This document shows positions 7,189-54,112 of a DNA stretch of 64,000 nt, piece by piece (position 1 is the first letter of the stretch; each line of letters starts with the position of its first letter). A program made the translations under genes and the position numbers. The notes below the pieces were generated by a model. The model was not told where the DNA came from, did no database searches, and saw only the letters and a list, made by a program, of their open reading frames with translations. Location of the stretch: contig JBAZXE010000002.1 in NCBI GenBank assembly GCA_041659985.1, positions 4,714-68,713 of the forward strand. Reading direction: 5' to 3'. The DNA comes from Thermoplasmatota archaeon. Its GTDB lineage: Archaea; Thermoplasmatota; E2; JACPAO01; JAHFTW01.

Positions 7189-7359
7189 CAGGAATTCTGA
7201 CCGCCATTATCGGCTGCCGGGCACCCAACTGGGGCCGGTCGAATCCTGTGTCTGCCAGGATCGCCTAGGCGTTCCCACAACCAATCCGGTCGGATTGGTT
7301 GCAGATGTTTGTTTTGGCGGACACTCTTGCGAGGTCCAGGCCTTCCCCTTTCGGGGAAG

Positions 7360-7432: not shown

Positions 7433-7468
7433 GGACCGATGTCCGGATCCGCGCTGTTGGATCCGCCA

Positions 7469-7594
7469 GCACGAGACAGTCTTACTTGCAAATCCGATGA
7501 ACCTAACCGGAATCGTATAGTGCCCGGTCGGCCCGCTGGTTCCTTGGCTGTGTTGCAACCAAGGGACACTCCTGAGAGGAGTGGTACGAAATAT
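7469..7594 (-). other. 3' flank / processing-helix arm of pre-16S
   Basis: 7469-7479 GCACGAGACAG is the reverse complement of 9189-9199 CTGTCTCGTGC. The inner blocks (CCGGTCGGCCCGCTGGTTCC vs GGAATCAGCGGACCGACCAGG) are also complementary. Confidence 0.75.
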
Positions 7595-9064
<1,470 letters not shown>

Positions 9065-11661: not shown

Positions 11662-13743
11662 TCACGCAGCGGAGGCGCTTGCTGGGGACGAACTCGCCGA
11701 TGCCCCGGAAGAGGGGACGCGGTCGGGAACGGTGAACCAGAACGTCGATCCGACCCCGGGAACGGACTCGACGCCGATGGTGCCGCCGCTGAGTTCGACG
11801 ATGCGCTTGCAGATGGCGAGACCGATGCCGGTGCCGGGGTAATCGTCGCGGCCGTGCAGGCGCTGGAAGATCTGGAAGATGCGCTCGAAGTGCCGCGGCT
11901 CGATGCCGATGCCGTTGTCCTTGACGGAGATGCGCCAGCCGCCAGGGGTGGCCTCGGCGGACAGCTCGACGCGACAGCGGCGCGTCGGGTCGCGGAACTT
12001 CAGGGCGTTGCCGATGAGGTTCTGCAGCAGCTGCTCAGACTGCCGCTCGTGGCCGACGATGGTGGGAAGCGCCGTTGTGACGACGAGGTCGGCGTTGGCC
12101 TCCGTCAGCGCCTGCTTCAAGGTGCCGCGGACGGTCTCGACGACGGCACCAAGGTCGACGGGCACCGGGGGCTCGGGCTTGGACCCGACGCGCGAGTACT
12201 GCAGGAGATCCTGGATGAGGCCTTGCATGCGTTGCGCCCCTTCCACGGCGGAGTCGATGAACTCGTCGGCATCTGCGTCCAGTCGGCCCTTGTAGCGACG
12301 CTGCAGCAGCTGCGTGTAGCTGGCGACGGTGCGTAGCGGTTCCTGCAGGTCGTGGCTGGCAACGTAGGCGAACTCGGCCAGCTCGCGGTTGGAGCGTTCC
12401 AGCTCGCGGCGCGCCTGGTCCTTGCGCGCTTCTTCCTCGAGCATGACGACGTTGAGGTGGCGGCGGCCGACGAAGCCAACGGCGAGGAACGCGACGAAGG
12501 CGATGCCGATCAGGAGGTACACCAGCCCCGCTTCGCCTTCGAGGGGCCACGAGGCCAGCAGCGACAAGCGACCGCTGACGAGCACTCCGAGCGGCAACAG
12601 GAGGTAGACCGCAAGCATCGCCAGGACGACATTCTCCAGGTTGGACGCGGTGGCTGCGAACTCCGGGGTGGCCTGCTGCCGGAACTTGCGCGTGTTGCGG
12701 TAGGCCAGCAGGCCGGCGCCAGCCGGCACGGCCATGACCAGGGCAATGAAGGGGTAGAGCAGCGGCGCCGGGGAGATGGGGGTCGCCGACGTGAAGACGA
12801 TTCGGTACACTCCCGCGCCGTGGGCTGCTGTGGCGTTCCCGGTGAGAACCACCACGTGCACGTCCCCGGCCTCACTCGTGGCCACCAGGTCCTCTTCCAC
12901 GGGCTCACCGCGCGGGCCAACGACATGCGAGAAGAGCAGGTCGTCGGCGACGCGCACGGTGATGCTGATGCGCCCGGCGACTCCGAGGCTTTCGGGGACG
13001 CGGGCGATGACGGTGGTGGCGAAGTGGATGGAGTCGCCTTGCAGGCCGAGGCGCTCGCGTTCGACGTCCGGTGACAGGGGGATGCCGGCCATCTCGATGG
13101 CCGCGTCACGCACCGTGGCCGAGAAGGACTGGCCGACTGCGGGGTTGATGAACGCCTGGCCAAGGGCAGTGCCGCGATCGTGGAACCGCCATGACACCGT
13201 CACGTTCGCCTGTCCAGGGGCCAAGTCAACGACGTAGCTGAACGCCTCGGCACCCAGGTGTTGCAAGTCGGTGGGTTCGTAGTACGGGAACGTCGCGGCC
13301 AGGCTGCCCTGCGGATCGTACACGCGCAGCTCCTGCTCCAGGTTCTTGGTGACCCCGGCGTCGGTGGTCTGCAGGATCACGCGGTCGGCGCTGAAGCGCA
13401 CGACCATCGAGGACGCCCCCGGGGGAACGTCAAGGGTGTAGAGGGCCTCGCCGCACCCGTTCTGGTTCTGCTCTTCGCGGAAGCGGAACCAGTTCTGCGT
13501 GTTGTTGAAGAGGAAATGGTTGGAACCGCAGGTTTGACTGGCCGGAAGGACGGGGACCTGCTGCGCCTGCTCGGCGTCGTAGCGCTCGTCCATGGCGCCC
13601 GTCGGGATGGTGACCTGGAGCCCGTACGTCGATTCGAGCACGCCCGACGCGCCGTCTTGGGCCCGCACCGGCAGGGCCGCCAGAGTCAAGACGGCGACCG
13701 CGACCCCCACGGCCGTCAAGGCCAGGCTGCGGCCCCGTGTCAC
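11662..13743 (-). CDS. sensor histidine kinase with a large extracytoplasmic N-domain
   Basis: Signal/TM MTRGRSLALTAVGVAVAVLTLAALPVRAQ, a ~330-aa outside domain, TM helices, H-box FAYVASHDLQEPLRTV and HATPase motifs NLIGNALKF...DNGIGI...GTGIGLAICKRIV. GTG start. Confidence 0.92.
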   Translation of the reverse strand: MTRGRSLALTAVGVAVAVLTLAALPVRAQDGASGVLESTYGLQVTIPTGAMDERYDAEQAQQVPVLPASQTCGSNHFLFNNTQNWFRFREEQNQNGCGEALYTLDVPPGASSMVVRFSADRVILQTTDAGVTKNLEQELRVYDPQGSLAATFPYYEPTDLQHLGAEAFSYVVDLAPGQANVTVSWRFHDRGTALGQAFINPAVGQSFSATVRDAAIEMAGIPLSPDVERERLGLQGDSIHFATTVIARVPESLGVAGRISITVRVADDLLFSHVVGPRGEPVEEDLVATSEAGDVHVVVLTGNATAAHGAGVYRIVFTSATPISPAPLLYPFIALVMAVPAGAGLLAYRNTRKFRQQATPEFAATASNLENVVLAMLAVYLLLPLGVLVSGRLSLLASWPLEGEAGLVYLLIGIAFVAFLAVGFVGRRHLNVVMLEEEARKDQARRELERSNRELAEFAYVASHDLQEPLRTVASYTQLLQRRYKGRLDADADEFIDSAVEGAQRMQGLIQDLLQYSRVGSKPEPPVPVDLGAVVETVRGTLKQALTEANADLVVTTALPTIVGHERQSEQLLQNLIGNALKFRDPTRRCRVELSAEATPGGWRISVKDNGIGIEPRHFERIFQIFQRLHGRDDYPGTGIGLAICKRIVELSGGTIGVESVPGVGSTFWFTVPDRVPSSGASASSSPASASAA

Positions 13744-20391: not shown

Positions 20392-22116
20392 CTAGCCGAG
20401 GGGCGGTGCCTCAGGTCCTTCTCCGGAGGGCAGGACGAACCAGAACACGGAGCCTTTGCCGGGACCCCCGCTTTCGACCCCGATGGCGCCACCGTGCGCC
20501 TCGACGATGCCCTTGGCGATGTAGAGACCGAGCCCCGAACCAGCGCGGGTCCGTTGCATCGTGTCGTGGACCTGGCTGAACGGTTGGAACAGCCGCGGGA
20601 TGGCCTCGGAGCGCAGGCCGATGCCGGTATCCACGACGCGCACGGCGACGCCGCCGCTGGCCCGCTGCACGCCCACCACGACGCGACCGCCTGCCGGGGT
20701 GAACTTGAGTGCGTTGGCGATGAGGTTGTCCAGCACTTGCGCGAGACGACGGGCATCGCCGTCGATCCACATTCCTGCCGGGGTGTTGGCCACCAGAGTG
20801 ACATGGGCCTGCGCGGCGACGCCCTCGAGGGCATGGACGGCGTCGTTGACCGCCGCGGACAGGTCCATCTTGGCGCGGTGCAGGGTCAGGTTGCTGGATT
20901 GGAGCCGGGCGCCGTCCAGCAGGTCTTGCACCAGCAGGGTGAGCCGTTGCACGTTGCGGCCAATGACCGCCAGGGCTTTGCTGCGGCGTTGCGGGTCGGC
21001 GTCCACATCTGGTTGACTCAGCAGCCGCAACTCGACTTGGATTGGGGTAAGGGGGGTGCTCAGCTCATGCGCAGCGGTGTTCATGAACTGGGTGCGCAGG
21101 CGGTTGACCTCGCGCAGGTTCTCGATGTCTTGGACCTGGGCTGCAGCGCGGCGGCGTGCCTCCTCGGCCTCGCGCACCTCCGTCACATCCTGCGTCGTTC
21201 CGATGAGGCGGACGACGCGGCCGGCGGCGTCCCGTTCAGCCCGGGCGCGCCAGGAGCCGAGCCGCATCGTGCCGTCTTGACGCATCAGGCGCGCCTCGAA
21301 CTCGAGCGGGCGGCCGTCCGCAAGGGTGGCCTGCGTGGCGGTTTGCACGGCGGCCCGGTCTTCGGCATGGATGAATCCCAGCAGGTCGTCGAGGTCCTTC
21401 GCCTCCGGTTCGGAGGCAAGGGCGAAGATGCGCCGCATTTCCGTGGAGACCGAAATGGGACGCCCTGGTTCCCAGACCCAGGACCCGACGTGGGCGAGTT
21501 CCTGCGCCAGGGCCAGGCCTGCCTCGCTGGCGGTCAGGCGCGCGTTGGCCTGCGCCAGGTCGCGCGATCGGGCGTCGGCGACGCCTTCACTGCGCAGCAC
21601 GGCGGCCTGGAAGAGGAACATGCAGAGCAGGAAGACGGCGAGGCTTGCGGTGAAGATGATGAGCTCCAGTCCTTGGTAAGCCAAGGCGAAGGCCCCGACT
21701 GCGTCGAGACCGACCAGGAGTCCGTCCACGACAACGAGGACGGTGACCCAAAGGCGGGCGATGGCGGGCGTTGCCAGGAAGAAGGCGTAGGGCAGGTAGG
21801 CGAAGGTCCAAAGGTATCCCGTGTGGCCCCACCCGCCAAGGGCGAACTGCGACGAGACGACAAGGGTCCCGACGGCCAGGATGCAGTGGGTGGCCCAGGT
21901 GTAGTTCCCGGTCCGTTGCAAGACGACGTAGTTGACGCTGATGACCGCGAACGAGACCAGATGGACCAGCGCCAGTGCTGGGACGGCGGCGACCTCGTAG
22001 TACAGCCAAGTCGAGGCGGCGCAGTACAAGAGGGCAATGATCGTGTAGACGTTCACGATGGCCCGCTGCGACCGCGCCAGGACCCCGTCGGCCGCGGTTG
22101 CCGCGGCAGGTTGCAT
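20392..22116 (-). CDS. membrane sensor histidine kinase (multi-TM + PAS + HisKA + HATPase)
   Basis: Trimmed to ATG 22116 (MQPAAATAADGVL). About 6 TM helices, a PAS-like region (GSWVWEPGRP...LIGTTQDVTE), H-box AAHELSTPLTPI, and NLIANALKF...DTGIGL...GSGLGLYIAKGIVEAHGG. Confidence 0.9.
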   Translation of the reverse strand: MQPAAATAADGVLARSQRAIVNVYTIIALLYCAASTWLYYEVAAVPALALVHLVSFAVISVNYVVLQRTGNYTWATHCILAVGTLVVSSQFALGGWGHTGYLWTFAYLPYAFFLATPAIARLWVTVLVVVDGLLVGLDAVGAFALAYQGLELIIFTASLAVFLLCMFLFQAAVLRSEGVADARSRDLAQANARLTASEAGLALAQELAHVGSWVWEPGRPISVSTEMRRIFALASEPEAKDLDDLLGFIHAEDRAAVQTATQATLADGRPLEFEARLMRQDGTMRLGSWRARAERDAAGRVVRLIGTTQDVTEVREAEEARRRAAAQVQDIENLREVNRLRTQFMNTAAHELSTPLTPIQVELRLLSQPDVDADPQRRSKALAVIGRNVQRLTLLVQDLLDGARLQSSNLTLHRAKMDLSAAVNDAVHALEGVAAQAHVTLVANTPAGMWIDGDARRLAQVLDNLIANALKFTPAGGRVVVGVQRASGGVAVRVVDTGIGLRSEAIPRLFQPFSQVHDTMQRTRAGSGLGLYIAKGIVEAHGGAIGVESGGPGKGSVFWFVLPSGEGPEAPPLG

Positions 22117-22171
22117 CACCGGGCAATCCACGCCTGGGCCTTCAAAGCGTCGGCGCTGAACGCCCCCGCCG

Positions 22172-22738
22172 TCACTCGACTTTGACCCATCCGCCCGCCG
22201 ACGGCAGGCGCACCAAGTGGCCGACCCGGTCGTCGAGTTCGCGCAGCCCCTCGCACCGCGGACGCAGGCCGTTTTGCGGGCAGGCCTGGCAGGTGCGCTC
22301 GAGGCGGTGGAAGCGGAAGAGCCACAGCGCGTTGAGAGCGCTGAGCGACCCCAGCAGGAGCACGATGCGCACGGCCAGGGGCGCTGGCAGTGCAAGGAGT
22401 CCTACGATGAACGCGCCGAACCCGATGCCCAAGGCGAGCTTGACGGCCACCTGTGCCGGCGCCGATGGGACGCGACCGGCGAAGCTGAACGCCTGCGGAC
22501 TTGCGATGAGCAGGCCGCCAACAGCCCAGGCCCACCAAGGCAGCCCCAATGCGCCACCAAAGAGCACGCCGCCGAGGACCGTGAGGGCAAGAACCGGGTA
22601 GCCGACGTAGCAGGCGATGCAGTAGCGTTTCCCGCCAAGGACAAACACGTCGGCCCGAAAAGGACCGCACAGGGGATGGTGCGACCGGCGGTAGGGGCCC
22701 ATGCGGCGGACCACTTGCCAAAGCTCGCGCGGCCCCAT
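22172..22738 (-). CDS. Cys-rich polytopic membrane protein (DUF2085-like, tentative)
   Basis: HHPLCGPFRADVFVLGGKRYCIACYVGYPV, then 4 TM helices, then a C-terminal CQACPQNGLRPRCEG. The start is uncertain (22738 or 22801). Confidence 0.5.
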   Translation of the reverse strand: MGPRELWQVVRRMGPYRRSHHPLCGPFRADVFVLGGKRYCIACYVGYPVLALTVLGGVLFGGALGLPWWAWAVGGLLIASPQAFSFAGRVPSAPAQVAVKLALGIGFGAFIVGLLALPAPLAVRIVLLLGSLSALNALWLFRFHRLERTCQACPQNGLRPRCEGLRELDDRVGHLVRLPSAGGWVKVE

Positions 22739-24895: not shown

Positions 24896-25840
24896 CTAGG
24901 GCGTCCGCGCCGCGACGCCCCTAGACGGGGCCCGCGCCGTGGTCACCGTGTCGACAGCCCCTGCGCCTGCCGTGGAGATCGTCCGCCCATTGGCGTCGTC
25001 GACGACCACGAAGTCAAGGTTGACCCCCAGGGCGCGCATGCGGCTTGCGACGACCCGCATGAACTGCAGGGTCTGCCGTGTCCCATGCCGCTCCAGCACC
25101 GGGTTCAGGGAGTCGAGCACCACTTGGCTGCGCACGCCCAGTTCGTCGCACGCCGTCTCGATGGCAATGGCGACGTCGTCAAGGCCCGCCTCGCCGGCCA
25201 GGGCCAGCGGCCCCCGGCGCGTCGCGTCGACGAACACGATGCCCGAGGTCTTCACGCCGGCCCGGTGCAGCCGGTCGCGGACGGCGTCGGCCGGGTCGTT
25301 GAAGCAGGCCAGGACCACCATGCTGCCGGTCTCGCACAGGTTGGCGACGTGGCGGTTGACGGCGCCTTCATGCTCGGCCGGGTGGATGTGCACGAGGCGG
25401 ACGCGGCTCCAGGCGGCTGCGGTCTTCACGGCCGGGCGGCGCCCGTCGCCGAGGCGGATGTGGATGTGTGAGCGGGCGATGCTGTTTCTGACCACGCGCA
25501 CGAGGACCGGCCCGGAGAAGTGGCCCTTGACCAGGTAGTCTTGCGCGCCGTCGTGCAGCGCCTGCACGGCGAGGTCCTGGTCGTCGAACCCGGAGAGGAT
25601 GATGACGGGGACTTCGGGGTCGACCTGCCGGACGGCGTGGAGGGTAGCCAACCCTTGGCTGTCCGGCAGACCGAGGTCGAGCAGGACGGCGTCGAAGCCG
25701 CCGCGGCGCACCAAGGCCAAGCCGCTCTCCAGGGTCGCTGCGCGGGCAGTTTCCCAGCGCGACGACTGCGGAACGTCCTTCAGGGTCTCCAGAAGGAGGC
25801 GCGTCTCCCCGGCATCGTCTTCGATGTGGAGGACCCGCAT
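24896..25840 (-). CDS. response regulator: receiver domain plus a C-terminal RecA/KaiC-like domain lacking a P-loop (tentative)
   Basis: MRVLHIEDDAGETRLL...AVLLDLGLPDSQG...VIILSGFDD...DYLVKG. The C-terminus (VVLACFNDPADAV...IVFVDA...QVVLDSLNPVLE...LDFVVV) has RecA-fold-like strand order, but I see no GxxGxGKT. Confidence 0.6.
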   Translation of the reverse strand: MRVLHIEDDAGETRLLLETLKDVPQSSRWETARAATLESGLALVRRGGFDAVLLDLGLPDSQGLATLHAVRQVDPEVPVIILSGFDDQDLAVQALHDGAQDYLVKGHFSGPVLVRVVRNSIARSHIHIRLGDGRRPAVKTAAAWSRVRLVHIHPAEHEGAVNRHVANLCETGSMVVLACFNDPADAVRDRLHRAGVKTSGIVFVDATRRGPLALAGEAGLDDVAIAIETACDELGVRSQVVLDSLNPVLERHGTRQTLQFMRVVASRMRALGVNLDFVVVDDANGRTISTAGAGAVDTVTTARAPSRGVAARTP

Positions 25841-25905
25841 TCGCCCCGCTCCAACGCGGTCAGCGGCTTAAGAGTTCGTTGCGGGGCCGACGCACCACTG
25901 CGGAA

Positions 25906-26598
25906 TCAGACCCAGGACAGGATCAAGTCGACGGCCGCGTCGAGGTCAGGCACGATGGCGACGTAGGGGACGCCCTTGCGCCGAGCATGAGCTTCCAGGT
26001 TGGCCGCTGAATAGGTGGTGGCGAGCAAGATGGCGGGGATGCCGAACCCGGCTGCGGCCTGCGCATCCTTGAGTTTGTCCCCAATCATGACGGCGCGGGC
26101 CTTGTTGACGAAGCGGCCCTCGGAGGCAAAGGCGGCGGCGCCATCCTCCAGCATGCCGGAGTTGGGTTTGGTGCGGCGGTGGCTGAGGAGCGGATGCGCG
26201 AAGGCGGCCTCGATGTGGTCGAGTCGGCCGCCATGGGCTTCGAGTTCCGCCTTGAACTGGCGGTGCAGGCGGTGGATCATGCCAGGCGTCGCGGTGAGCA
26301 GGCCGACCCAGGGCTGGTTGGTGGCGAGGCTGGTCTGGATGCCGGGTTGGTTGAGGCGGGCGAAGGCCTCGCGGGCGCCGGGAAGCCAGCGCAGGTTGCG
26401 GTAGAACCGCAATCCAAGGAGCGGGTTGACGTTGAAGACGCCGTCGCGGTCGAGGAACACCGTGAACAGGGATTGTCCGGATTCTTTGCGCGATTTGCCG
26501 GATTTCCTCTTCCCTGCGACCGGTTTCGGCTGGGCTTTGCCCGCCGACCCTTCGATCCTCATCTGTGCGGGTCGGCGCGCGGCCTTTTTGGCCATCAC
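25906..26598 (-). CDS. HAD-IIIA phosphatase (GmhB / histidinol-phosphatase-like) with a basic N-terminal tail
   Basis: FLDRDGVFN...ATNQ...RRTKPNSGML...MIGDKLKDAQAA. Its start overlaps the folE2 stop (GTGATG). Confidence 0.8.
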   Translation of the reverse strand: MMAKKAARRPAQMRIEGSAGKAQPKPVAGKRKSGKSRKESGQSLFTVFLDRDGVFNVNPLLGLRFYRNLRWLPGAREAFARLNQPGIQTSLATNQPWVGLLTATPGMIHRLHRQFKAELEAHGGRLDHIEAAFAHPLLSHRRTKPNSGMLEDGAAAFASEGRFVNKARAVMIGDKLKDAQAAAGFGIPAILLATTYSAANLEAHARRKGVPYVAIVPDLDAAVDLILSWV

Positions 26599-27506
26599 AA
26601 ATCACCCAGCGTCGTGGTGCGCTCCGCGTAGGCGTTGTGCTTGTGGATGGATTCCTCGGCCTCGGAGGAGACGAAGACGCGGACCTCCTTGCCAAGGCGA
26701 ATGTACCGGTCCGCCGCCTTGTGCAGGACTTCCCGCACGACGTCCTCGACGAAACGCGGGTTGTTGTGAGCCTGCAGGACGAGGTCGCCCTCGTCGCCGC
26801 GCTTGAGCAACTCGAAGGTCGGCGCCGACAGGGAGTCTTCGCAGATTTGCACAAGGTCGGCCGCCTCGACGTCGGTCTCGCCGGGGACGTCGACGATGAG
26901 GGTGACGCGGTTGCGTTGGTTGTGCGTGATGAACGGCAGGTCCTTGGGTACTTTCGCGCCGAGCTTGTGCCGCACCGTCTCCATGGCGCACGGGCAGGCG
27001 GACATGCCGACGACCTGGACGCCGACGCGCCGCGTGGTGCTGGGTTTGCCCTTGCCCTTGCCGCGGAAAGCCTCGGCTTCCGCCAGAAGGCGATAGTTCT
27101 CCACGCTGGGTTTACCGCCGGGGTTGCGCCGGGTGAGGAAGTAGTCCGCTTCAGCCTTGATGTGGGCATGGCTGGCGTAGTCATGCTTGTCCAGAAGACG
27201 CACCGCCAGGCGGCGGCACAACGATTCCAGGCTCGAGGCCTCCTCGGCGACCTCCTCGTCAAGGATGTCGGCCAGCGCCTCGAGGTTGCGGCTCATGTGC
27301 GTGCCCTTCTGCGTCTTGGGCAGATCGACGAAGAGGTCGAACGCCGCCACGACGCCGCTGGCTTTCTGGCCGGGGCGGTGCACGGTCACCGGTTTCTTGA
27401 CGCCGCGGACGCCGACGCGGGTGAGCCGGTAGGGGCGCGGCGATTCGGCGGCCTGCACGTCGGGCGACTCCGTCCCCATCGCGCGTTTGACTGCAGGTTT
27501 GGCCAC
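26595..27506 (-). CDS. folE2: GTP cyclohydrolase IB family (FolE2 / MptA)
   Basis: QKGTHMSRN...GMSACPCAME...THNQRN...EAEESIHKHNAYA. Confidence 0.88.
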   Translation of the reverse strand: MAKPAVKRAMGTESPDVQAAESPRPYRLTRVGVRGVKKPVTVHRPGQKASGVVAAFDLFVDLPKTQKGTHMSRNLEALADILDEEVAEEASSLESLCRRLAVRLLDKHDYASHAHIKAEADYFLTRRNPGGKPSVENYRLLAEAEAFRGKGKGKPSTTRRVGVQVVGMSACPCAMETVRHKLGAKVPKDLPFITHNQRNRVTLIVDVPGETDVEAADLVQICEDSLSAPTFELLKRGDEGDLVLQAHNNPRFVEDVVREVLHKAADRYIRLGKEVRVFVSSEAEESIHKHNAYAERTTTLGDL

Positions 27507-27539
27507 GATGCTCGCACCGAAGGCCTGGACTTGAAGCTG

Positions 27540-27818
27540 CTACCCCGGCAGGCGGTTCCAGGCGAGGGCAAGGAAGGCGGCGTTGAGGGCCGCGCACGCA
27601 ATGAAGGGCGCAAGAAAACGCACCTTGCGGGTCTTGTGGTGCGCCAGGGAAAAGCCCAGGAATTCACCAGGCCAGCCGCCCAGCAAGGCAAGGGCATGGA
27701 AGACGGCCTCCGGAACACGGCCCTGGCCGCGGCGGGCGCGTCGCTTGTCCACCACGGCGACGGCAAGGCCAATGAGGTTGGCGGCGGCGAGCCACGACCA
27801 CGCCCACGTCGGGAACAC
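27540..27818 (-). CDS. DUF1294 membrane protein
   Basis: VDKRRARRGQGRVPEAVFHALALLGGWPGEFLGFSLAHHKTRKVRF. Trimmed to GTG 27818 because the longer track ORF would overlap queD. Confidence 0.65.
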   Translation of the reverse strand: MFPTWAWSWLAAANLIGLAVAVVDKRRARRGQGRVPEAVFHALALLGGWPGEFLGFSLAHHKTRKVRFLAPFIACAALNAAFLALAWNRLPG

Positions 27819-27897
27819 GAATCGCGATGGCTGCAGGGGCAAAAGGCAGCCGGGCCACAGGGGCAGGGGTTTTCCGCCCCGGATTGGTCGCCATGGC

Positions 27898-28437
27898 GTG
27901 CTCGAACTGAAGATTGACGGCTGGCGCAAGGGTCTGCGGTTCAGCTCGGCCCACATCACGCCGGAGCACAAGAAGTGCGGCCGCCTGCATGGCCACACGT
28001 ATGCCATCCATCTGCGGATGCGCGGCGACCAGGACGAGTGGGGCATCGTCCTCGACTTCGGCATCATCACGGACACGCTGAAGCAGATTGGCGACGAGAT
28101 CGACCACCTCGTCCTCGTTCCGACGGAGAGCAACCACTACTCCGACCTCAAGGTCACCAAGGACACCGTGCAGTTCCGCGTCACCGACCCGTACACCGGG
28201 GAGCCGAAGCGCTTCAACTTCCCGCGCCAGGACTGCGCCATGCTGCCGATTCCCTCGACGACGGCGGAGGACCTGGCGAAATACGTCTACCGCGAGTTCA
28301 TGCGCCGCACCAAGTTCACCACCGACACGGCGTTCGTCGAGGTCGGCGTGGACGAGGGCTACGGCAAAGGCGCCTGGTATGGCGAGGAAAAGGGCGTCAA
28401 GGCAAAGCCCACCAAGGCGAGCCGCAAGAAGCGCTAG
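27898..28437 (+). CDS. queD: 6-carboxytetrahydropterin synthase / PTPS family
   Basis: GTG 27898: MLELKIDGWRKGLRFSSAHITPEHKKCGRLHGHTYAIHL...LDFG. Lys-rich C-terminal tail. Confidence 0.82.
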   Translation: MLELKIDGWRKGLRFSSAHITPEHKKCGRLHGHTYAIHLRMRGDQDEWGIVLDFGIITDTLKQIGDEIDHLVLVPTESNHYSDLKVTKDTVQFRVTDPYTGEPKRFNFPRQDCAMLPIPSTTAEDLAKYVYREFMRRTKFTTDTAFVEVGVDEGYGKGAWYGEEKGVKAKPTKASRKKR

Positions 28438-28467
28438 CGCTGACGAACCGCCGTTTCGGGGGACCTG

Positions 28468-28556
28468 GGATTGAGCGGAGGCTCTTCGGGGATTGCATCG
28501 GCTCGATTGCCACGTGGAAGCTCGTCAAATTGAGCAGAGGTCTGTTCAATCCGTGG
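28468..28556. repeat. degenerate GGATTG / CAATCC box cluster between convergent genes
   Basis: GGGATTGAGCGG 28468, GGGGATTGCATCGG 28488 and CGATTGCC 28504, then CAAATTGAGC 28527 and CAATCCGTGG 28547. Confidence 0.45.
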
Positions 28557-28577
28557 TCCCCCACACTGGAACGATGC

Positions 28578-29177
28578 CTACGAGCCCAATCCAGTCACGT
28601 CGAGGAGGCTGCCGCGTTCGGCCGACAGGGAATCCACCACGACGACCAGGCAGCACAACACGCGCGGGTCGAGGCCAGGTTGGTCGATGTGCAAATCGTA
28701 GGTATCGCCCCAGACCTGGAACGTCCCTTCCACGCGGGCCACAGGCTGCCCCATGGCGTTGCCGACCTGGGCGCGGTACGGGATGAGCCGCGTGAGCATC
28801 CGGCGGGCCAGTCCGCGGCCCGTGGATTCCAGCAGTTCGCCGTGCACGAAACCATCGGGGCCAAGCACCTGCCAGTGGTCCGCCAGGATGCTGGCCCAAC
28901 CCTTGCGACGCAAGGTCCCCAAGAGGACGCCGGCCGCGTCGCGGACCTCCAGGTTGGCCTGGAAATCGAACACCTTGGTGGCCTTGACCTGGAAGCAGAC
29001 GACGGCCTTACTCTCATCGGTGTAGACCGTCCAGGCCTCCTTGATGCGCATCCAGCGCTGCGCCACGTAGGCCAGAAGTCGGCCGTCTCCGCCCTCGATG
29101 CGGTACTGCCGCCCCAACGTGAGCCGGCGTTCGACGATGCGGTAGCGCGGCTGGTCCCACGGCGCGGCCAAGGCCAT
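28578..29177 (-). CDS. LURP-one-related / tubby-C-like (DUF567-type) protein
   Basis: Trimmed to ATG 29177: [56 protein letters not shown]... Confidence 0.6.
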
Positions 29178-29212
29178 GCCGGCGAACCAGGGAACTGGGC
29201 TATCATGTTGCC

Positions 29213-30091
29213 GTGGGCACGCCGGCAGGGAGCCGCCAACTGGTTGGGGCGTGTCCTGCCCCCGACCCATGGCCAACGGTGCATCCTTTTCATCCGCTCC
29301 CTCGTGGCCTGGACGTGGCGCGGACGGCGGCGAAGACCGAAGGCCGGGGCGGCAAGCCGCAGGCCATTCGCAACTCCACACGCGGGCCGGCCTCCCACCC
29401 GAAGACGCGTCGCCCGCGCGCGGTCGTCCTGCTGTCCGGAGGCCTGGACTCCACGACCGCCGCAGCCTGGGCCAAAGCCGAAGGCCACGACATCTATGCC
29501 TTGTCGTTCGACTACGGTCAACGCCACAGGAAGGAGTTGACCCGCGCCAAGGCCGTGGCGAAGGCCCTGGGCGTGAAGGACCACAAGGTTCTCCGGCTCC
29601 CCATCGGCGACCTGGGCCACTCGGCCCTCACCGACCGGTCCATCGCGGTGCCCGACGCCTCCAAGACGGCTGCCATCGGGTCGTCCATCCCATCGACCTA
29701 CGTCCCGGCGCGCAACACCGTGTTCCTGTCGTTTGCCCTGGGGTACGCCGAGGTCGTGGGAGCGTCCGCCATCGTCATCGGCGCCAACGCCCTGGACTAC
29801 TCGGGCTACCCGGACTGCCGCCCGGAATACCTGGCGGCCTTCGAGACCATGGCGAACCTGGCTACCAAGGCTGGCGTGGAAGGCCGGACCGTCAAGGTCT
29901 TGGCCCCATTGTTGCACATGTCAAAGAAGGACATCGTGCTCGCCGCCCGTCGCCTCAAGGCCCCCATCGCGCAGACCTGGAGTTGCTATCGGGGCGGAAG
30001 GGCCCCGTGCGGGACCTGCGAGTCGTGCGTGCTTCGAGCCAAGGGGTTTGCCGAGGCTGGACTGACCGACGCGGCCCTCACGGTGGGTTGA
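29213..30091 (+). CDS. queC: 7-cyano-7-deazaguanine synthase
   Basis: [17 protein letters not shown]...[22 protein letters not shown]...[19 protein letters not shown]. The N-terminal ~75 aa are doubtful. An alternative GTG is at 29315. Confidence 0.9.
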
Positions 30092-30967
30092 ATGCCGTCC
30101 AACGAAGTCCTGCTGGAGGACGCGTCCATCGTGCTCGCGCTCCTCCTGCTGGAGGCCGTCCTGTCCTTCGACAACGCCGCCATCCTGGCGGCGATGGTGC
30201 GCAAGCTGCCCGTGCGGGACCGCCGCAAAGCCCTCCTGTACGGATTGGTGGGCGCCTACGGGTTGCGGTTCGCCGCCATCCTGCTGGCCTCCGTGCTCAT
30301 CGCCAACCCGATCCTCAAGGTCATCGGCGGCGGCTACCTGCTGTTCATCGGCCTTAGGCACTTCATCACGCTGGTGACGCACAAGCCACACGAGCACAAG
30401 GACCACGCCATCAAGACCGGGTTCCTCACCCGACTCGGCGTGCCCGCCCTGGTGGCGGTCATCGTCCAGATTGAACTGATCGACCTTGCTTTCGCCATCG
30501 ACCAGGTCATCGTCGCCGTCGCCTTCACGCCCAAGATCTGGCTCATTGTCATCGCGAGCTTCATCGGCATCCTGTTCCTGCGCCTTGCGGCCGCCTTGAT
30601 CGCCCGCGTCATGGATTGGCTCCCGCTGCTGGAGCACATGGCCTACGTCGCGGTGACCTACGTCGGCCTCAAGCTGGTCCTGCTGTACCCGGTCTCCTTC
30701 ATCAACGACGGCCACGGAATCCACGTGCCGACGCCGCTCAGCATCAGCATCACGATGGCGCTCTTCGTCATCCCCATCCTGGTGAAGCTGGTGTTCAACG
30801 TGCCCCGGAGTGTTCCGCAAGGGTCTCACGTGGCGACGACCGCGCCGGAGTCCCCTGCCCCCAAACCTGAACCCGGGCGCCTGCAGGCGGCCAACACCGA
30901 CGTGAAGGACGCCCCGCGTTACGTGGACGGCGTCCTGCAGCCGCCGCGCCCTCCCCCGGAACCTTGA
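30092..30967 (+). CDS. TerC-family integral membrane protein, copy 1
   Basis: LLLLEAVLSFDNAAILAAMV...GGGYLLFIGLRHF. The ATG directly abuts the queC stop (TGAATG). Confidence 0.8.
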   Translation: MPSNEVLLEDASIVLALLLLEAVLSFDNAAILAAMVRKLPVRDRRKALLYGLVGAYGLRFAAILLASVLIANPILKVIGGGYLLFIGLRHFITLVTHKPHEHKDHAIKTGFLTRLGVPALVAVIVQIELIDLAFAIDQVIVAVAFTPKIWLIVIASFIGILFLRLAAALIARVMDWLPLLEHMAYVAVTYVGLKLVLLYPVSFINDGHGIHVPTPLSISITMALFVIPILVKLVFNVPRSVPQGSHVATTAPESPAPKPEPGRLQAANTDVKDAPRYVDGVLQPPRPPPEP

Positions 30968-30980
30968 AACCCGACCCGCC

Positions 30981-31880
30981 GTGGCCGCAGCAATGGTGGA
31001 CCTGATTGGGGACATCGCCATCGTCGCCACGCTCGTGGTGCTCGAGGCCGTCCTGTCCTTCGACAACGCGGCCATCCTGACCGTCCTGTCGCGCCGCCTG
31101 CATGACCCTGCCCAGCGACGCCGGGCGCTGAACTACGGCTTGGCCATCGCCTACGTCCTGCGCGTCCTGGCCATCTTCGCCGCCGTCTTCCTCGTCCGCC
31201 AGCCTTTGTTCCTCGTTCTCGGCGGCGCATACCTCATCATCCTCGGCATCAAGCACTTCGTGGCGCTGGCCAAGAAGGGCGACGAGCACCTCACCGCCGA
31301 GCACAAACCCCTCCTGGCACGATTCGGGATGACGGCATTCGCCGCCGTCGTCGTGGAGATCGGGGTCATCGACCTCGTCTTCGCCCTCGACCAGGTCGTC
31401 GCCGCCGTCGGCTTCGTGCGCGGCCATGAGCACGCCACGGTCCTCATCGTCATCGCCGCGACGCTTGGCCTGCTCAGCCTGCGGGTTCTGGCGCCCTTCA
31501 TCGGCCGCCTCATGGACTGGCTTCCGCTGCTCGAGCACATGGCGTTCGTCGCCGTGGCGTTCGTGGGCACACTGATGGTGCTGGAGCACACCTCCATCGA
31601 CCACGGCCTGCAGCTTGTCGGCAACCCCGACGCAGAAGGAGCGCCGCATGTCCTGTTCCACCTGGAGAAGATGGTTAAGATTGCCATCACGTTGAGTCTG
31701 TTCCTGGTGCCGGTTGTCGTCAAGCTGGTGTTCAAGGTGCCCAGGAGCCACCCCGGCGTGCATGCCGCCGTCGAGGCGGACTTCGCAGCCGGCGCCCCGC
31801 ACCGCGGCGACGACGTCTTGCAGGGCGACCCGAAGCACCCCGGTCAGATGCTTCACGACGACCCTGGCCGCTCGCCTTAA
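30981..31880 (+). CDS. TerC-family integral membrane protein, copy 2
   Basis: LVVLEAVLSFDNAAILTVLS...GGAYLIILGIKHF. GTG start 13 nt after the copy-1 stop. Confidence 0.8.
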   Translation: MAAAMVDLIGDIAIVATLVVLEAVLSFDNAAILTVLSRRLHDPAQRRRALNYGLAIAYVLRVLAIFAAVFLVRQPLFLVLGGAYLIILGIKHFVALAKKGDEHLTAEHKPLLARFGMTAFAAVVVEIGVIDLVFALDQVVAAVGFVRGHEHATVLIVIAATLGLLSLRVLAPFIGRLMDWLPLLEHMAFVAVAFVGTLMVLEHTSIDHGLQLVGNPDAEGAPHVLFHLEKMVKIAITLSLFLVPVVVKLVFKVPRSHPGVHAAVEADFAAGAPHRGDDVLQGDPKHPGQMLHDDPGRSP

Positions 31881-31904
31881 GGGCTCGTGGCCTGACGGGC
31901 CCTT

Positions 31905-32558
31905 GTGCAGATTACCGAGGTGTTCTACTCGGTGCAGGGCGAGGGCCGCCGCATGGGCGTTCCCACGACGTTCGTGCGCACGACGGGATGCCACCTCCGT
32001 TGCGTCTGGTGCGATGCCGCCTACGCGTTCTACGGCGGCGAGAAGAAAGGCCTCGACGAATTGATGGCCGAGGTGGCCAAGCACCCGACGAAGGAGGTCT
32101 GCTTCACCGGTGGCGAGCCGCTCCTGCAGAAGGACGCGTGGGAGTTCGTCACGCGCCTGCTTGACGACGACTACTCCGTGCTCATCGAGACCTCCGGGAA
32201 CCTGTCCTTCGCGCGGGCCAACGAGTACCCCGTCAAGGTCCGCGACCGCCTGTGCATTAGCATGGACGTCAAGTGCCCCGGCTCCGGCATGGCCAGTAAG
32301 AACGACCTGCTGTTGCTCAAGGACCTGCGCTCGCCGGACCAGCTCAAGTTCGTCATCGCCGACCGCGCGGACTTCGACTTCGCCGCCGATGTCGTGCGCA
32401 AGCATGGCCCGTTCCCCTGCCCGGTCTACTTCAACCCCGTCGGCGGCACCGACCCAAAGGCGCTCACCGAGTGGGTCCTGGCGGAGACCAAGCCGCTCGA
32501 CGTACATGTCGGATTGCAGTTGCACAAGCTGGTGTGGGGCGACGTGCCGGGGCGGTGA
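31905..32558 (+). CDS. queE: 7-carboxy-7-deazaguanine synthase (radical SAM)
   Basis: ITEVFYSVQGEGRRMGVPTTFVRTTGCHLRCVWCDAAYAF...CFTGGEPLLQ. GTG start 24 nt after the TerC-2 stop. Confidence 0.92.
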   Translation: MQITEVFYSVQGEGRRMGVPTTFVRTTGCHLRCVWCDAAYAFYGGEKKGLDELMAEVAKHPTKEVCFTGGEPLLQKDAWEFVTRLLDDDYSVLIETSGNLSFARANEYPVKVRDRLCISMDVKCPGSGMASKNDLLLLKDLRSPDQLKFVIADRADFDFAADVVRKHGPFPCPVYFNPVGGTDPKALTEWVLAETKPLDVHVGLQLHKLVWGDVPGR

Positions 32559-32641
32559 TTACCTGCAGTTGTGCGGCCGCCAATCGATAGGCCAGCGCCT
32601 GGGCGAGTCCGTTGAAATAGGGCGATTAGTGGTCCAAGCCC

Positions 32642-33106
32642 GTGCGCCTGATTCCATTGGTCGCCCTAATGCTGGCCGGCTGCTCTGCATCTCCCGACCC
32701 CGCTCTTCCCCCCGTTGAGGTACTGGGGCCCCCGGCTCGGATTATTGTCTCGTGGGAGAACGTGACCTGGGAGTCCATCTGCACCGTTCCGGCAGGCTCG
32801 ACGTGCGGTGTTAGCAATCATGAATTCAACGAATGGCGATTACAGGACGTTGGATCCGACCTTTGGCTCAACTTCACCTGGGAAGCCAATGACGAAGCAA
32901 ACCGAGAGCTCACCGTGTCATACGGCAGTGGCGAGCAAACGGGTCCATCACCGTTGAGCATCCACGTGGACGAACCCGAGGAGGAAATCACAATCACCGT
33001 GAGTGGGAAAATCACGTCGTATTTTGTGGCGTACGAGGACGCGCCCCCGCAAGAATTCATGGCAACCGCCAGTTACCTTGCGGTTGCTTCTTTTGGCGAC
33101 CCATAA
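32642..33106 (+). CDS. lipoprotein, unknown function, atypical codon usage
   Basis: GTG start; MRLIPLVALMLAGCSASPD (lipobox). It has many A/T-ending codons (att cca ttg cta tct gca gtt aat cat gaa tta...), unlike its neighbours. Confidence 0.6.
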   Translation: MRLIPLVALMLAGCSASPDPALPPVEVLGPPARIIVSWENVTWESICTVPAGSTCGVSNHEFNEWRLQDVGSDLWLNFTWEANDEANRELTVSYGSGEQTGPSPLSIHVDEPEEEITITVSGKITSYFVAYEDAPPQEFMATASYLAVASFGDP

Positions 33107-36424: not shown

Positions 36425-36496
36425 GCGCCTTGACTCGGCGGGCGGGTTTTCAAGGTGCCGGATTCAGAGAGTGGACGCCGGGGTTTCGGGGCATGG

Positions 36497-46291: not shown

Positions 46292-47143
46292 TCAGGCCGA
46301 GCGTGCCGCGCGGCGGCGACGCAGCATGGGGCGGAGGTACCAGATGGCCATGCCGCCAACGTAGAGCGCCCAGACGGCAAGGTCGAGGACGGCGGGCGTG
46401 GCGCGGTAGCCGAGGACGCCGTAGAGCAGGCCTCCGGCAACACAGTTGACCGTCACGTTGTCGCCGCACTTGTGCGGAAGGAAGCCGCTCCAGTCCCACG
46501 CCTGCGGTGTCTCGGGCACCCAACCGACCTCTTCGCCTTCGTGGGCCGCGTAGCCCAGCATGCCGCCCGCCACCAGGATAAGGAAGACGCCGGTGACGGC
46601 GAAGAATCCCTGGACGCTGAGCTTGACGGTGCCACGGAAGAGCAGGAAGGCCAGCACGGCACTGATGGCGATGCCAACGAGGAGACCCAGCAGGATCTCG
46701 GCGGGCGTCGCTTGGCCGGCCTGGGCGGCGATGAAGACCACGGTTTCAAGACCCTCGCGGACCACGATGACGAAGGCGAGACCGAGGAGGACGGAGGAAC
46801 GGCCGGCAAGGACGGCGTCCTTCGCCTTGGCGTGCAGGGTCCCCATCGCGTGCTGGGTGTGTTTGTACATCCAGACAATCATGTAGGTCAGAATGAGGAC
46901 GGCGAGGGCGCTGGCGGCGGCCTCGAAGGCGGCGCCGAAATCCTCGGAGAGTTGGTCGGCGAGGCGGTAGGTCAGCACGCCCACCGCGATTGACACGGCC
47001 ACACCGAGCAGGCCGCCGATGAGGATGGACCGGCGGGCTTCAGGGTGGCCGAGTTTGACGACGATGCCCGCGAGGATGCCGCAGACCAGCAGGGCCTCGA
47101 GGGATTCGCGCAGGGCGACAATAGCGATGCCAGCGAAGGACAT
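46292..47143 (-). CDS. FTR1/EfeU-family iron permease
   Basis: Trimmed to MSFAGIAIVALRESLEALLV (REXLE 1), with a second motif VVREGLETVVF. Confidence 0.88.
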   Translation of the reverse strand: MSFAGIAIVALRESLEALLVCGILAGIVVKLGHPEARRSILIGGLLGVAVSIAVGVLTYRLADQLSEDFGAAFEAAASALAVLILTYMIVWMYKHTQHAMGTLHAKAKDAVLAGRSSVLLGLAFVIVVREGLETVVFIAAQAGQATPAEILLGLLVGIAISAVLAFLLFRGTVKLSVQGFFAVTGVFLILVAGGMLGYAAHEGEEVGWVPETPQAWDWSGFLPHKCGDNVTVNCVAGGLLYGVLGYRATPAVLDLAVWALYVGGMAIWYLRPMLRRRRAARSA

Positions 47144-47210
47144 TTCGGGGCCTCGAAATCGCCGAGGAGAGAACCCTACTTGAATCTTAGGGGAGCCGAA
47201 ATCAGCATTG

Positions 47211-47307
47211 GATTCGCCGGATTGTTCCTTGATTCGCCGGAACGGTTTTCTCCCTTGGACCGAGCCCCAATTCAATCCGGCCAATCGTTTGGCAATCCGT
47301 TGAATCA
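47211..47307. repeat. four-box GATT/AATC dyad element, stop-codon anchored
   Basis: GATTCGCCGGATT 47211 and GATTCGCCGGAAC 47231, then AATCCGGCCAATC 47274 and AATCCGTTGAATC 47294, both pairs with 20-nt spacing. The coding strand of the DtxR-like gene ends CAC TGA TTCAACGGATT. Confidence 0.85.
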
Positions 47308-47781: not shown

Positions 47782-47850
47782 GATTCGCCGGAGTTCAGCG
47801 AGATTTGACGGATTCCTCAATCCGCAAATCGATTCAGAATCCGGAAATCA
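47782..47850. repeat. four-box GATT/AATC dyad element, stop-codon anchored
   Basis: GATTCGCCGGAGT 47782 and GATTTGACGGATT 47802, then AATCCGCAAATC 47819 and AATCCGGAAATC 47838. The ACAD coding strand ends CCC TGA TTTCCGGATT. Confidence 0.85.
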
Positions 47851-49005
47851 GGGTGTGGCTGGGAACGTGATGTCCGGCATGACGGCGCGCTTGATCACGT
47901 CGCGCTGCATCTGAGTCGTCTCGCCGACGAACCACAGCGCGCGCGAATCGCGGGCGAAGCGCTCCGTGCCGCCTTCGCGCATGAAGCCGGTGCCGCCCTG
48001 GATGCGGATGGCCTGCCGCGTCATGGGGACCGCCATCTCATTGGCGAACGCCTTGGCGCGGGCAGCCCACAACAGGCCGTCGTCGGCTTCAAGGTGGGCG
48101 GCCGCCGCCAGCGTGAGGGCGAGGCTGGCCTCGACGTTGACGTCGATGAGGGTGATGCCGTCGGAGACCGCCTGGTACGTCCCGATGGGCGAACCGAACT
48201 GGATGCGTGTGGCCGCGAAGGCGGCCGCGGCCGCATAGGCGCCCGCCACGCAGCCCGTGATGGCGGCCGCGGCGGCGACCTGCAACCAGGCGCGCGAGGA
48301 GCGCAGGAGGTCGAATCCTTTGCCGACCTCGCCGAGGCGGTGTGCGTCGGGCACGACGACACCCGAGAAGTAGACGGTGCGGATTCCTGCACCGCGCAAA
48401 CCCATGAGGGGTTCGTTGCGGCCGAGAGAGACACCCGTAGCGTCAGCCGGGACGTACAACAACGTGGGGCCCGATGGGTTGCCCTTGCCGGCCTGCACGT
48501 TGGCAAGGACGACGAAGTGCTTGGCATCCGAGGCGGCGATGCCCCAGACCTTCTGGCCAGTGACCTTGAACCCGACCTTGTCGGGCACGGCCATGGTGCC
48601 GATGCTTCCGGCGTCGGAGCCGTGCGCCTCCTCCGTCGCCAGGACGGCCACCAGTTCGCCTGCGGCGGCCTTGGGGGCCAGTTCGGCGGCGACCGCGGGG
48701 TTGGCGAGAAGGCAGCGCAGGCCGAGGCCGTTGTGGACGGCGAGAATGGCCGCGGTGTTCGGGCAGACCTTGGCGAGTTCGTGGACCGCTAAGGCGTAGG
48801 CCGTCGGGCCCGCGCCGGCTCCGCCAAGCTCGGTGGGGAGTGTGAGGGCGGTGAGCCCGAGACCCGCGGCGGCTTGGATGACGTCGGCGGGGAAGCGGTC
48901 ATTGCGATCGAAGTCGGAGGCCTGCTCGAGCCCGATGGTGGCCGTGGCGAACTCGCTTACGACCTTGCGGATCAACTGCTCATCGTCGGAGAGCGTGTAC
49001 GGCAT
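47848..49005 (-). CDS. acyl-CoA dehydrogenase
   Basis: Full-length ACAD pattern: ...ATEEAHGSDAGS...GQKVWGIA...IQGGTGFMRE...RDSRALWFVGETTQMQ. Confidence 0.9.
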   Translation of the reverse strand: MPYTLSDDEQLIRKVVSEFATATIGLEQASDFDRNDRFPADVIQAAAGLGLTALTLPTELGGAGAGPTAYALAVHELAKVCPNTAAILAVHNGLGLRCLLANPAVAAELAPKAAAGELVAVLATEEAHGSDAGSIGTMAVPDKVGFKVTGQKVWGIAASDAKHFVVLANVQAGKGNPSGPTLLYVPADATGVSLGRNEPLMGLRGAGIRTVYFSGVVVPDAHRLGEVGKGFDLLRSSRAWLQVAAAAAITGCVAGAYAAAAAFAATRIQFGSPIGTYQAVSDGITLIDVNVEASLALTLAAAAHLEADDGLLWAARAKAFANEMAVPMTRQAIRIQGGTGFMREGGTERFARDSRALWFVGETTQMQRDVIKRAVMPDITFPATP

Positions 49006-53099: not shown

Positions 53100-53213
53100 G
53101 GTGGGTTTGTCGGGCCGTCATGAATTTCACGTTCTAGCCGACGACTCGTAGTCGAGTTCGGTCAGGTATTGTGCGGGTGTGTCGGGTTGCCATGTGTGTC
53201 AGGTCTCCAGAAA

Positions 53214-53285
53214 GGCACATTTCTGTGCCAAATCCGTATTGTCTTCTGGCCTTATTAAGGCTATCTAATGGCCATTTATTGGCCA
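53214..53285. promoter_or_regulatory. operator-like palindrome plus A/T-rich boxes upstream of etfB
   Basis: GGCACA-TTTC-TGTGCC at 53214-53229, then GGCCTTATTAAGGC / ATGGCCATTTATTGGCC (53247-53285), 60-130 nt upstream of the etfB ATG. Confidence 0.4.
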
Positions 53286-53344
53286 AAAGCGCTGTGCAAT
53301 GGCCCTTCAGCGTTTTCAACCAAAGCCCCGTCGCAGCCACGCCC

Positions 53345-54112
53345 ATGACCAAGATTGCCGTCCTAGTCAAGATGGCTCCCGACGTGAGCCAGCTCAAGAT
53401 CGACCCGGCCACGCAGGCGCCGAAGATGGATGGTCTGCCGTGGAAGGTCTCCGACTTCGACAAGAACGCCATCGAGGCTGCAGTCAAGCTGAAGGAGAAG
53501 GGCCAGGCGACGAAGATCACGGCCTACACCTTCAATGGCGGCCCCAACGTCCTCAACCTCATCAAGGAGCCGCTGGCCATGGGCTGCGACGAAGCCGTCG
53601 TCCTGTCCGGCCCCGACACCGACGGCGCCGGCATCGCCCGGGTCCTCGCCGAAGCCATCAAGAAGAACGGTGCCGACCTCGTCTTCGCCGGCGAAGTCTC
53701 CATCGACCGCGTGGCCGGCGAAATCGGCCCCCGCGTCGCTGCCCTCCTCGGCATGCCGAGCCTGGTCAACACGCAGGAAATCCACGGCATCGAGAACGGC
53801 GCCCTCAAGGCCACCCGCGACGGCGAACCCGGCGAGACGGTTCTGGTTCCGATGCCATGCGCGGCGACGTTCAACGACGAGGCCAACCACCCGCGCCTGC
53901 CCGCCCTCATGGCCATCCTGCAAGCCGGCAAGAAGCCCATCCGCCAAGTCAAAACCGCCGACCTCGGCATCGCCGACGCCACCCTCGCCCGCCGCATGGC
54001 GATGACCGGCAACAAGGCCCCCAAGCAGGAACGCAAGGGTATCCTCTTCTCCGGCGCCGACGCCGCGGAGCAACTCGTGGCGGCGCTTCGCAAGGAGGGG
54101 GTCGCGCAATGA
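53345..54112 (+). CDS. etfB: electron transfer flavoprotein beta subunit
   Basis: Trimmed to MTKIAVLVKMAPDVSQLKID...DLVFAGEVSIDRVAGEIGPRVAALLGMP. Confidence 0.9.
   Translation: MTKIAVLVKMAPDVSQLKIDPATQAPKMDGLPWKVSDFDKNAIEAAVKLKEKGQATKITAYTFNGGPNVLNLIKEPLAMGCDEAVVLSGPDTDGAGIARVLAEAIKKNGADLVFAGEVSIDRVAGEIGPRVAALLGMPSLVNTQEIHGIENGALKATRDGEPGETVLVPMPCAATFNDEANHPRLPALMAILQAGKKPIRQVKTADLGIADATLARRMAMTGNKAPKQERKGILFSGADAAEQLVAALRKEGVAQ

Follow-up and report, generated by a model that had tools for sequence, protein, structure and literature searches.

A queC–terC gene arrangement conserved within, and confined to, one Thermoplasmatota lineage

Why should genes for TerC membrane proteins lie in the middle of an archaeal gene cluster for 7-cyano-7-deazaguanine (preQ0), a precursor used in tRNA modification? 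TerC is a very widespread family whose mechanism is poorly understood, and little was found on its archaeal role. The question is raised by a 64,000-nucleotide stretch of contig JBAZXE010000002.1 from a Thermoplasmatota archaeon (the window), in which two TerC genes, terC1 and terC2, stand between queC and queE. A first-pass annotation of this DNA had offered two explanations: a local metal-handling function, or a new class of transporter for 7-deazapurines. Here we confirm that the queC–terC arrangement is real and conserved, yet confined to one Thermoplasmatota lineage. We lean, at somewhat better than even chances, towards a third explanation, in which these are ordinary YkoY-type metal-cation TerCs that were inserted once between queC and queE and ride on a selected housekeeping operon.

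The host is archaeal: the window, with a GC content of ~66%, carries an archaeal 16S-tRNA(Ala)-23S-5S operon at 3996–9064, and an NCBI protein labelled 'Candidatus Thermoplasmatota archaeon' matches TerC1 with 100% identity. Pfam and NCBIfam profiles bore out the identities first given to the queC, terC, terC and queE genes (Table 1), and the four open reading frames (ORFs) have coding-type composition (GC at third codon positions 0.85–0.92). The QueE translation carries a CxxxCxxC motif, and JGI labels its homologues 7-carboxy-7-deazaguanine synthase. All four enzyme families of the preQ0 cluster (MptA, QueD, QueE and QueC) are present and clustered in the window. Reading of the sequence also upheld the tight, same-strand spacing of 0, 13 and 24 nt. 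The queC TGA (30089–30091) abuts the terC1 ATG at 30092 in the string TGAATG; the terC1 TGA ends at 30967 and is followed by a terC2 start at either GTG 30981, 13 nt on, or, if the mRNA is leaderless, ATG 30993, 25 nt on; and the terC2 TAA ends at 31880, with the queE GTG at 31905 after 24 nt. Among the in-frame starts of queC (29213, the farthest upstream GTG; 29279; 29315), 29213 is probably too far upstream. GTG 29315 was taken as the start because it fits both the length of QueC orthologues (225–240 amino acids) and a promoter-like element at 29285–29293.

The arrangement recurs in related genomes. Below, L numbers denote related loci that were compared with the window and P numbers denote TerC cluster representatives; taxon labels are those of the depositors. 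Scanning one genome per GTDB species with TerC1 yielded nine Thermoplasmatota-type loci, and in all nine a TerC gene lies immediately 3′ of queC. Further TerC and QueE homologues added L011, L013, L100, L106, L107 and L108, which have the same core. Overall, TerC directly follows queC in 16 of the 17 distinct related loci, so the terC genes do not stand beside queC and queE in this genome alone, a case that the first-pass annotation had named as speaking against any link. Twelve queC/terC junctions were inspected, one of which fell outside the sequence shown; nine of the other 11 have 0 nt between the genes or a 1-nt overlap (TGAATG, TAGGTG, TGATG, TAATG), while in the remaining two the genes are 3 and 10 nt apart. 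The pair is also kept where its surroundings differ. queD and mptA are not nearby in L004–L006, L011, L107 and L108, and L007 and L100 have no queE downstream, yet TerC remained with queC in each.

The number and type of TerC genes vary. The operon reads queC–terC1–terC2–queE in the window and L001 (L007 is similar but lacks queE), queC–terC1–terC3–queE in L002, L003, L013 and, in part, L015, and queC–terC–queE in L004–L006, L008, L009, L011 and L106–L108. TerC3 (~254–268 amino acids) is from a different TerC subfamily: it is 25–29% identical to TerC1 and TerC2 and, at 70.2 bits, scores under every NCBIfam TerC subfamily cutoff. The nearest TerC3 representative, P0254, is encoded after a DUF202 gene. 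One apparent oddity, a 'long QueC' of 494 amino acids in L107 (2804–4288), was set aside, as its 274-residue N-terminal part matches no Pfam domain and probably reflects a start called too far upstream in GC-rich DNA.

Outside this clade the association was not found. A QueE alignment was used to scan metagenome contigs, giving a sample blind to TerC of 80 loci with 29–80% identity to the window QueE. TerC occurs in one of them, the in-clade L015 (80% identity), and in none of the 79 out-of-clade loci at tblastn E <= 1e-4 within the flanks present, many of the contigs being short; this threshold is sensitive enough to catch the 27%-identical TerC3. In ~33 of the 79, queC abuts queE, which we take as the ancestral state. 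A search of 1.84 billion cluster representatives returned only 17 TerC representatives at E <= 1e-30. In neighbour-joining (NJ) trees, which were unbootstrapped and built on simple distances, the TerC1, TerC2 and single TerCs linked to que genes group in one clade, and TerC2 arises inside it. The nearest sister of this clade, P0129 (43% identity over HMMER-matched stretches, 39% by tblastn), comes from an archaeal contig, where the next gene downstream is a Na+/H+ exchanger-TrkA_C gene. P0128, P0130 and P0254 have no que neighbours, and que genes are absent from the contexts of five near-outgroup TerCs. Another sister TerC, P0122, was discarded as an outgroup context; it lies on a 1.2-kb contig, and its downstream gene is not queE. 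Recurrent clustering of TerC with que genes in unrelated lineages was not seen across the 79 QueE loci and five near-outgroup contexts, and the TerC–que association arose a single time, in one clade.

Even within the clade the operon occurs without TerC. In L104 and L105, which represent an abundant lineage with a QueE 64% identical to that of the window, the synteny HAD, GCHY-1, DUF1294, PTPS, queC, queE, LysE, CMD is intact, queC overlaps queE and there is no TerC between them. The QueC and QueE NJ trees both place these loci within the TerC-bearing clade, beside L107 as its sister, which is most simply read as loss of TerC from their operon or its relocation. These loci keep the cluster without TerC, so a preQ0 pathway operon exists without it. 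In L104, an EamA gene (drug/metabolite transporter superfamily; 5716–6612, minus strand) lies convergent just after queE and is followed by ABC-2 transporter genes. The position of the EamA gene in this TerC-less locus may be a coincidence.

Is the operon a single transcription unit? Predicted gene starts in the window have an AT-rich peak at −32 to −25, and the motif CCT[TA]N0-2A, starting at −36 to −24, precedes 8 of 47 genes against 1.5 expected, a ~5-fold enrichment. This pattern suggests mostly leaderless mRNAs with a TATA-like element upstream. Elements of the CCTTAAG, CCTTGAAA or CCCTTTAAC type, without a Shine-Dalgarno sequence, are found ~28–31 nt before many starts between 9800 and 64000, and further examples lie at 25867–25872 before a response-regulator gene and at ~36449–36456 before a DUF6220 gene. 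In the que operon, all six two-TerC loci have [CA]TT[AG]A at −30 to −28 relative to the second TerC gene (chance ~0.014 per site), and five of them (window, L001, L002, L003 and L015) have it at this distance from queE too. No TATA-like element lies upstream of terC1, unlike terC2/terC3 and queE. In the single-TerC loci L004–L006, queE is instead preceded by GGAGG 8–12 nt upstream. Judged by these sequence elements, independent transcription of terC2/terC3 and of queE is probably possible as well, and their placement, with none at terC1, would leave queC–terC1 alone as one coupled unit. No oligo-T tract separates the genes, so read-through may occur. Co-transcription of all four genes had been called very likely at first; queC and terC1 are indeed firmly coupled, but the four-gene unit is less sure given the TATA-like elements before terC2/terC3 and queE.

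Regulatory RNA elements gave no further lead. No riboswitch (preQ1, yybP-ykoY Mn2+ or other) matched an Rfam model at the gathering threshold in the window, and none did so at E <= 1 in 27400–32800. The absence of a yybP-ykoY riboswitch is expected in an archaeon, and the 'R_switched' protein model TIGR03716 does not demand one. An AAGGGC/GCCCTT hairpin between terC2 and queE was rejected, as it is not stabler than shuffled sequence (z −1.33); the promoter-element reading of this site is preferred.

The two window proteins, 45% identical to each other, both pass the TIGR03716 (YkoY) cutoff and far exceed that of Pfam TerC (Table 1), which assigns them to the YkoY and not to the Alx/TerC subfamily. 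Neither matches the YhhQ/Vut_1 or QueT/QrtT families, and Pfam gives only TerC and, weakly, DUF475. We compared the motifs of the que-linked TerCs with 133 outgroup representatives, in which the E-x3-S-x-D-N and E-x2-D-x5-D positions are 90–100% conserved. TerC1 retains all family-conserved residues (E21, S25, D27, N28, R59, E128, D131, D137, R164 and P178) and has a His-rich central loop with five His (THKPHEHKDH). The first-pass annotation had allowed that the paralogs might prove to be canonical Mn-exporter TerCs with no deazapurine phenotype; the YkoY scores of both proteins and the complete motif of TerC1 go halfway towards that outcome. Substitutions noted in the clade are Q138, beside the invariant D137, A155 and W176. 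Q138 (S or N elsewhere) and an MDW(L/F)P motif also occur in the non-que-linked sister P0129 and thus predate the que linkage. An AF2 model of TerC1 (pLDDT 84, pTM 0.72) is all-helical with 6–7 long helices, the family fold having ~7 transmembrane segments. The TerC1-type C-terminal tail, AANxDVKDAPRxIDGVxQPPRP, has a mean pLDDT of 80–90 in 10-residue blocks over residues 261–291. No comparable PDB structure was found by single sequence, profile or fold (best Foldseek E 0.25).

Characterised relatives point to metals. TerC proteins act in Mn2+ export and in metalation of exported enzymes (PMC10550928, PMC12096827), have been linked to Zn/Mn tolerance (PMC12054061), and are already known in bacteria as tandem paralogs with Mn-related roles (PMC10550928, PMC12096827). 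The Bacillus subtilis Mn2+ exporters/metalation factors MeeY (YkoY) and MeeF (YceF) resemble the window proteins in Pfam family and in the E/S/D/N and E/D/D motif residues; B. subtilis has two TerC paralogs per genome (PMC10550928), and the window likewise shows two. The window differs in its archaeal host, the lack of a yybP-ykoY Mn riboswitch, the queC–queE setting and a His-rich loop and C-terminal motif of its own, and the function of its TerCs is predicted from sequence. Lmo0991 and Lmo0992 of Listeria monocytogenes, both TerC, complement a B. subtilis meeF meeY mutant (PMC10550928). They too are two paralogs in one genome, presumably adjacent going by their locus numbers, like terC1–terC2 or terC1–terC3, but they are bacterial and no adjoining que genes are reported for them in PMC10550928. 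The TerC of the terZABCDE tellurite-resistance system shares the Pfam family, but the window TerCs are of the YkoY subfamily, and no TerB, TerD or TerZ was found among the window neighbours scanned. A precedent for a membrane transporter in such a setting is YhhQ (COG1738/Vut_1), the experimentally tested E. coli preQ0 transporter, which clusters with queuosine-precursor genes (PMC5372724). YhhQ is not homologous to TerC, however, and the TerC–queC link is confined to one clade. The first-pass annotation knew of no link between TerC and 7-deazapurines, and none emerged from the literature searched: no relevant paper was found linking TerC to queuosine, preQ0, archaeosine or 7-deazaguanine, and a 2026 preprint on the QueC family does not mention TerC. 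The one strong co-occurrence of the name was with the human telomerase RNA TERC and is irrelevant.

On our preferred explanation, TerC1 and TerC2 would most likely transport or pass on a divalent metal cation of the Mn2+ type at the membrane. In an ancestor of this Thermoplasmatota clade, a TerC gene would have entered, once, between queC and queE, which normally abut, and terC1 would be expressed by termination–reinitiation on the queC message through the 0-nt or overlapping stop/start. A further TerC gene would have been added later, either a duplicate (terC2) or a member of another subfamily (terC3), and this gene, like queE in its displaced position, would carry a promoter element of its own. 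The TerC genes would then ride on a constitutively expressed tRNA-modification operon, without being a step in preQ0 synthesis or transport. What we infer here is the metal substrate, the way in which terC1 is coupled to queC and the absence of any functional connection with the que enzymes. A gene in mid-operon is shielded from rearrangement, and its conservation alone is therefore weak evidence of a functional tie. Three observations nevertheless weigh against a purely neutral passenger. The queC–terC bond, in 16 of 17 loci, outlasts the loss of queD/mptA or queE neighbours, which exceeds what a neutral passenger needs; in L007 and L100 it was queC, not queE, with which TerC stayed; and terC3 was separately recruited to the same slot. 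Other observations count against the preferred explanation as a whole. The motif-2 residue E128 is Gly in all TerC2-type proteins, including L009 and L100 in which the TerC2-type protein is the sole TerC, and the que-linked clade alone has an invariant central-loop His (H102) and a C-terminal motif, KLVFxVPRS. Nor does any metal-responsive element or metal gene lie near the TerC genes.

Could the metal role instead be selected within the pathway? The TerCs would then tune Mn2+, Fe2+ or Zn2+ for the metalloenzymes of the cluster, with selection for co-expression with queC. MptA/GCYH-IB is Fe/Mn-dependent, QueD and QueC are Zn-dependent, and QueE uses [4Fe-4S]/Mg. The clustering of the whole pathway, including MptA, in the window suits this idea, but the same enzyme types are encoded at 79 other QueE loci with TerC at none, L104 and L105 lost TerC from an otherwise intact cluster, and in six loci TerC is with queC–queE while mptA and queD lie elsewhere. 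The survival of the queC–terC junction through rearrangements and the repeated addition of TerC-family genes there also favour it, as do the retained metal-site residues and His-rich loop, although characterised TerCs export Mn or metalate extracytoplasmic, not cytoplasmic, enzymes (PMC10550928). We regard selected metal handling as unlikely: as first proposed it agrees with what the family is known for, but nothing emerged that would connect it specifically with the que enzymes. More broadly, recruitment of the TerC clade into 7-deazaguanine metabolism, as a new class of transporter for preQ0 or 7-carboxy-7-deazaguanine (CDG) or as a membrane partner of QueC, would explain both the lasting terC1–queC coupling and the repeated TerC additions at one site; we consider it decidedly unlikely.

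In the transporter version, the clade would have switched its substrate to preQ0, CDG or a similar base, which it would import for salvage or else export. In its favour, a gene for a transporter lies within a preQ0 operon and is coupled to it in translation; YhhQ was tracked down through clustering of this sort (PMC5372724). Organic-substrate exporters are also known in the LysE superfamily (PMC4608589), and PMC12054061 cites computational work that connects Ter systems with production of a nucleoside-like metabolite. Against this, the proteins do not resemble YhhQ/Vut_1 or QueT, TerC became linked to que genes a single time and is missing at the other 79 QueE loci, and no riboswitch, of the preQ1 class or any other, was detected. 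The substitutions Q138, A155 and W176 and the missing Glu128 of TerC2-type proteins could reflect a changed substrate, but Q138, like MDW(L/F)P, is older than the que linkage, both proteins pass the YkoY cutoff, and TerC1 has a full cation-site motif. As the de novo route is encoded in full by the cluster, there is no need for salvage. With no positive evidence for it, this second proposal of the first-pass annotation appears very unlikely. Extremely improbable, in our view, is a scaffold in which TerC1 binds QueC or a QueC–QueE complex through its conserved C-terminal tail, which would explain the obligate stop/start coupling. The coupling is indeed conserved, KLVFxVPRS is clade-specific and the TerC1-type tail is modelled with moderate to high confidence, but the tail varies in length and sequence and is absent in single-TerC loci, no QueC–TerC fusion occurs among the best 120 TerC homologues, and L104 does without TerC.

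Table 1 Features of the preQ0 region in the window, and terC3 in related loci
Feature	Coordinates	Strand	Evidence
HAD-IIIA-type phosphatase	25906–26598	−	Pfam Hydrolase_like/Hydrolase and NCBIfam HAD-IIIA matches
MptA/GCYH-IB (FolE2 family), first step toward preQ0	26595–27506	−	PF02649 E 1.6e-74; TIGR00294 307.6 bits (cutoff 220)
DUF1294 small membrane protein, between mptA and queD	27540–27851	−	PF06961 69.8 bits
QueD (6-carboxytetrahydropterin synthase)	27898–28437 (start taken as GTG 27898)	+	PF01242 E 2.6e-18; TIGR03367 64.1 bits, under cutoff 89.25
LURP-one-related (LOR)-like gene, splits queD from queC	28578–29177	−	PF04525 24.9 bits (cutoff 24.5; marginal)
CCTTTTCAT promoter-like (TATA-type) element	29285–29293	+	~22–30 nt before queC GTG 29315; read from sequence, fits AT-rich peak
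QueC (7-cyano-7-deazaguanine synthase)	29315–30091 (earliest start 29213)	+	PF06508 E 5e-77; TIGR00364 226.6 bits (cutoff 150.3)
TerC1 (YkoY-subfamily TerC membrane protein)	30092–30967	+	PF03741 E 3.6e-41, 141.3 bits (cutoff 27.8); TIGR03716 179.7 bits (cutoff 138.5)
CCTTGAAA promoter-like element, holds terC1 stop codon	30962–30969	+	−31 to −24 from ATG 30993
TerC2 (paralogous YkoY-subfamily TerC)	30981/30993–31880	+	PF03741 E 9.9e-38, 130.1 bits (cutoff 27.8); TIGR03716 142.5 bits (cutoff 138.5)
CCTTAAG promoter-like element, holds terC2 stop codon	31875–31881	+	~29 nt before queE GTG 31905
QueE (7-carboxy-7-deazaguanine synthase, radical SAM)	31905–32558	+	PF04055 E 1.6e-11; best NCBIfam match TIGR04349 222 bits, under cutoff 300
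terC3 in the slot of terC2	L002 7795–8556; L003 8966–9751; L013 7027–7806; L015 46–810		

Upstream of queC, the start of the HAD phosphatase gene overlaps the mptA stop by 4 nt, and this gene also adjoins GCHY-1 in L001–L003, L008, L009, L013, L104 and L106; the DUF1294 gene was found too in L001, L008, L013 and L104. The phosphatase and DUF1294 pair is kept across the clade (window 25906–27851, minus strand; L001, L008, L013, L104, L106), and the linkage may point to an unusual early pterin step ahead of QueD, in which the MptA product would be dephosphorylated. The window QueD is 82–92% identical to that of related loci. The LOR-like gene is specific to the window, with zero tblastn matches (E <= 1e-4) in loci L001–L103, where the queD–queC gap without it is ~20 nt to 1.3 kb. 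No member of the TGT family, which bears on the tgtA/arcS question, was matched among the window ORFs scanned. The first-pass annotation had supposed that the archaeon lacks YhhQ- and QueT-type genes; none turned up among the ~40 ORFs scanned, a search that covered the 64-kb window.

Farther out, two HisKA/HATPase_c histidine kinases, one with PAS domains, and a response-regulator receiver-DUF7504 fusion are encoded on the minus strand (11662–13743, 20392–22395 and 24896–25840), the fusion gene lying directly upstream of the que region. Further genes encode an FTR1 iron permease (46292–47284, −), an acyl-CoA dehydrogenase (47848–49005, −), an ETF subunit (53171–54112, +) beside a large Fer4/CCG (HdrD-like) protein (55910–58249, +), and an RNA 2′-phosphotransferase (Tpt1/KptA; 62384–63287, +) right after tRNA-Cys.

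The conserved, translationally coupled queC–terC pair offers a concrete and cheaply testable lead. If the link is functional, it would mean a new class of deazapurine transporter or a metal-supply step for archaeosine synthesis; if it is not, the locus is a clear case of an operon-trapped gene that mimics functional linkage. In either case, CTTAAG-type elements at about −28 that overlap upstream stop codons help to annotate promoters and leaderless genes in this uncultured lineage.

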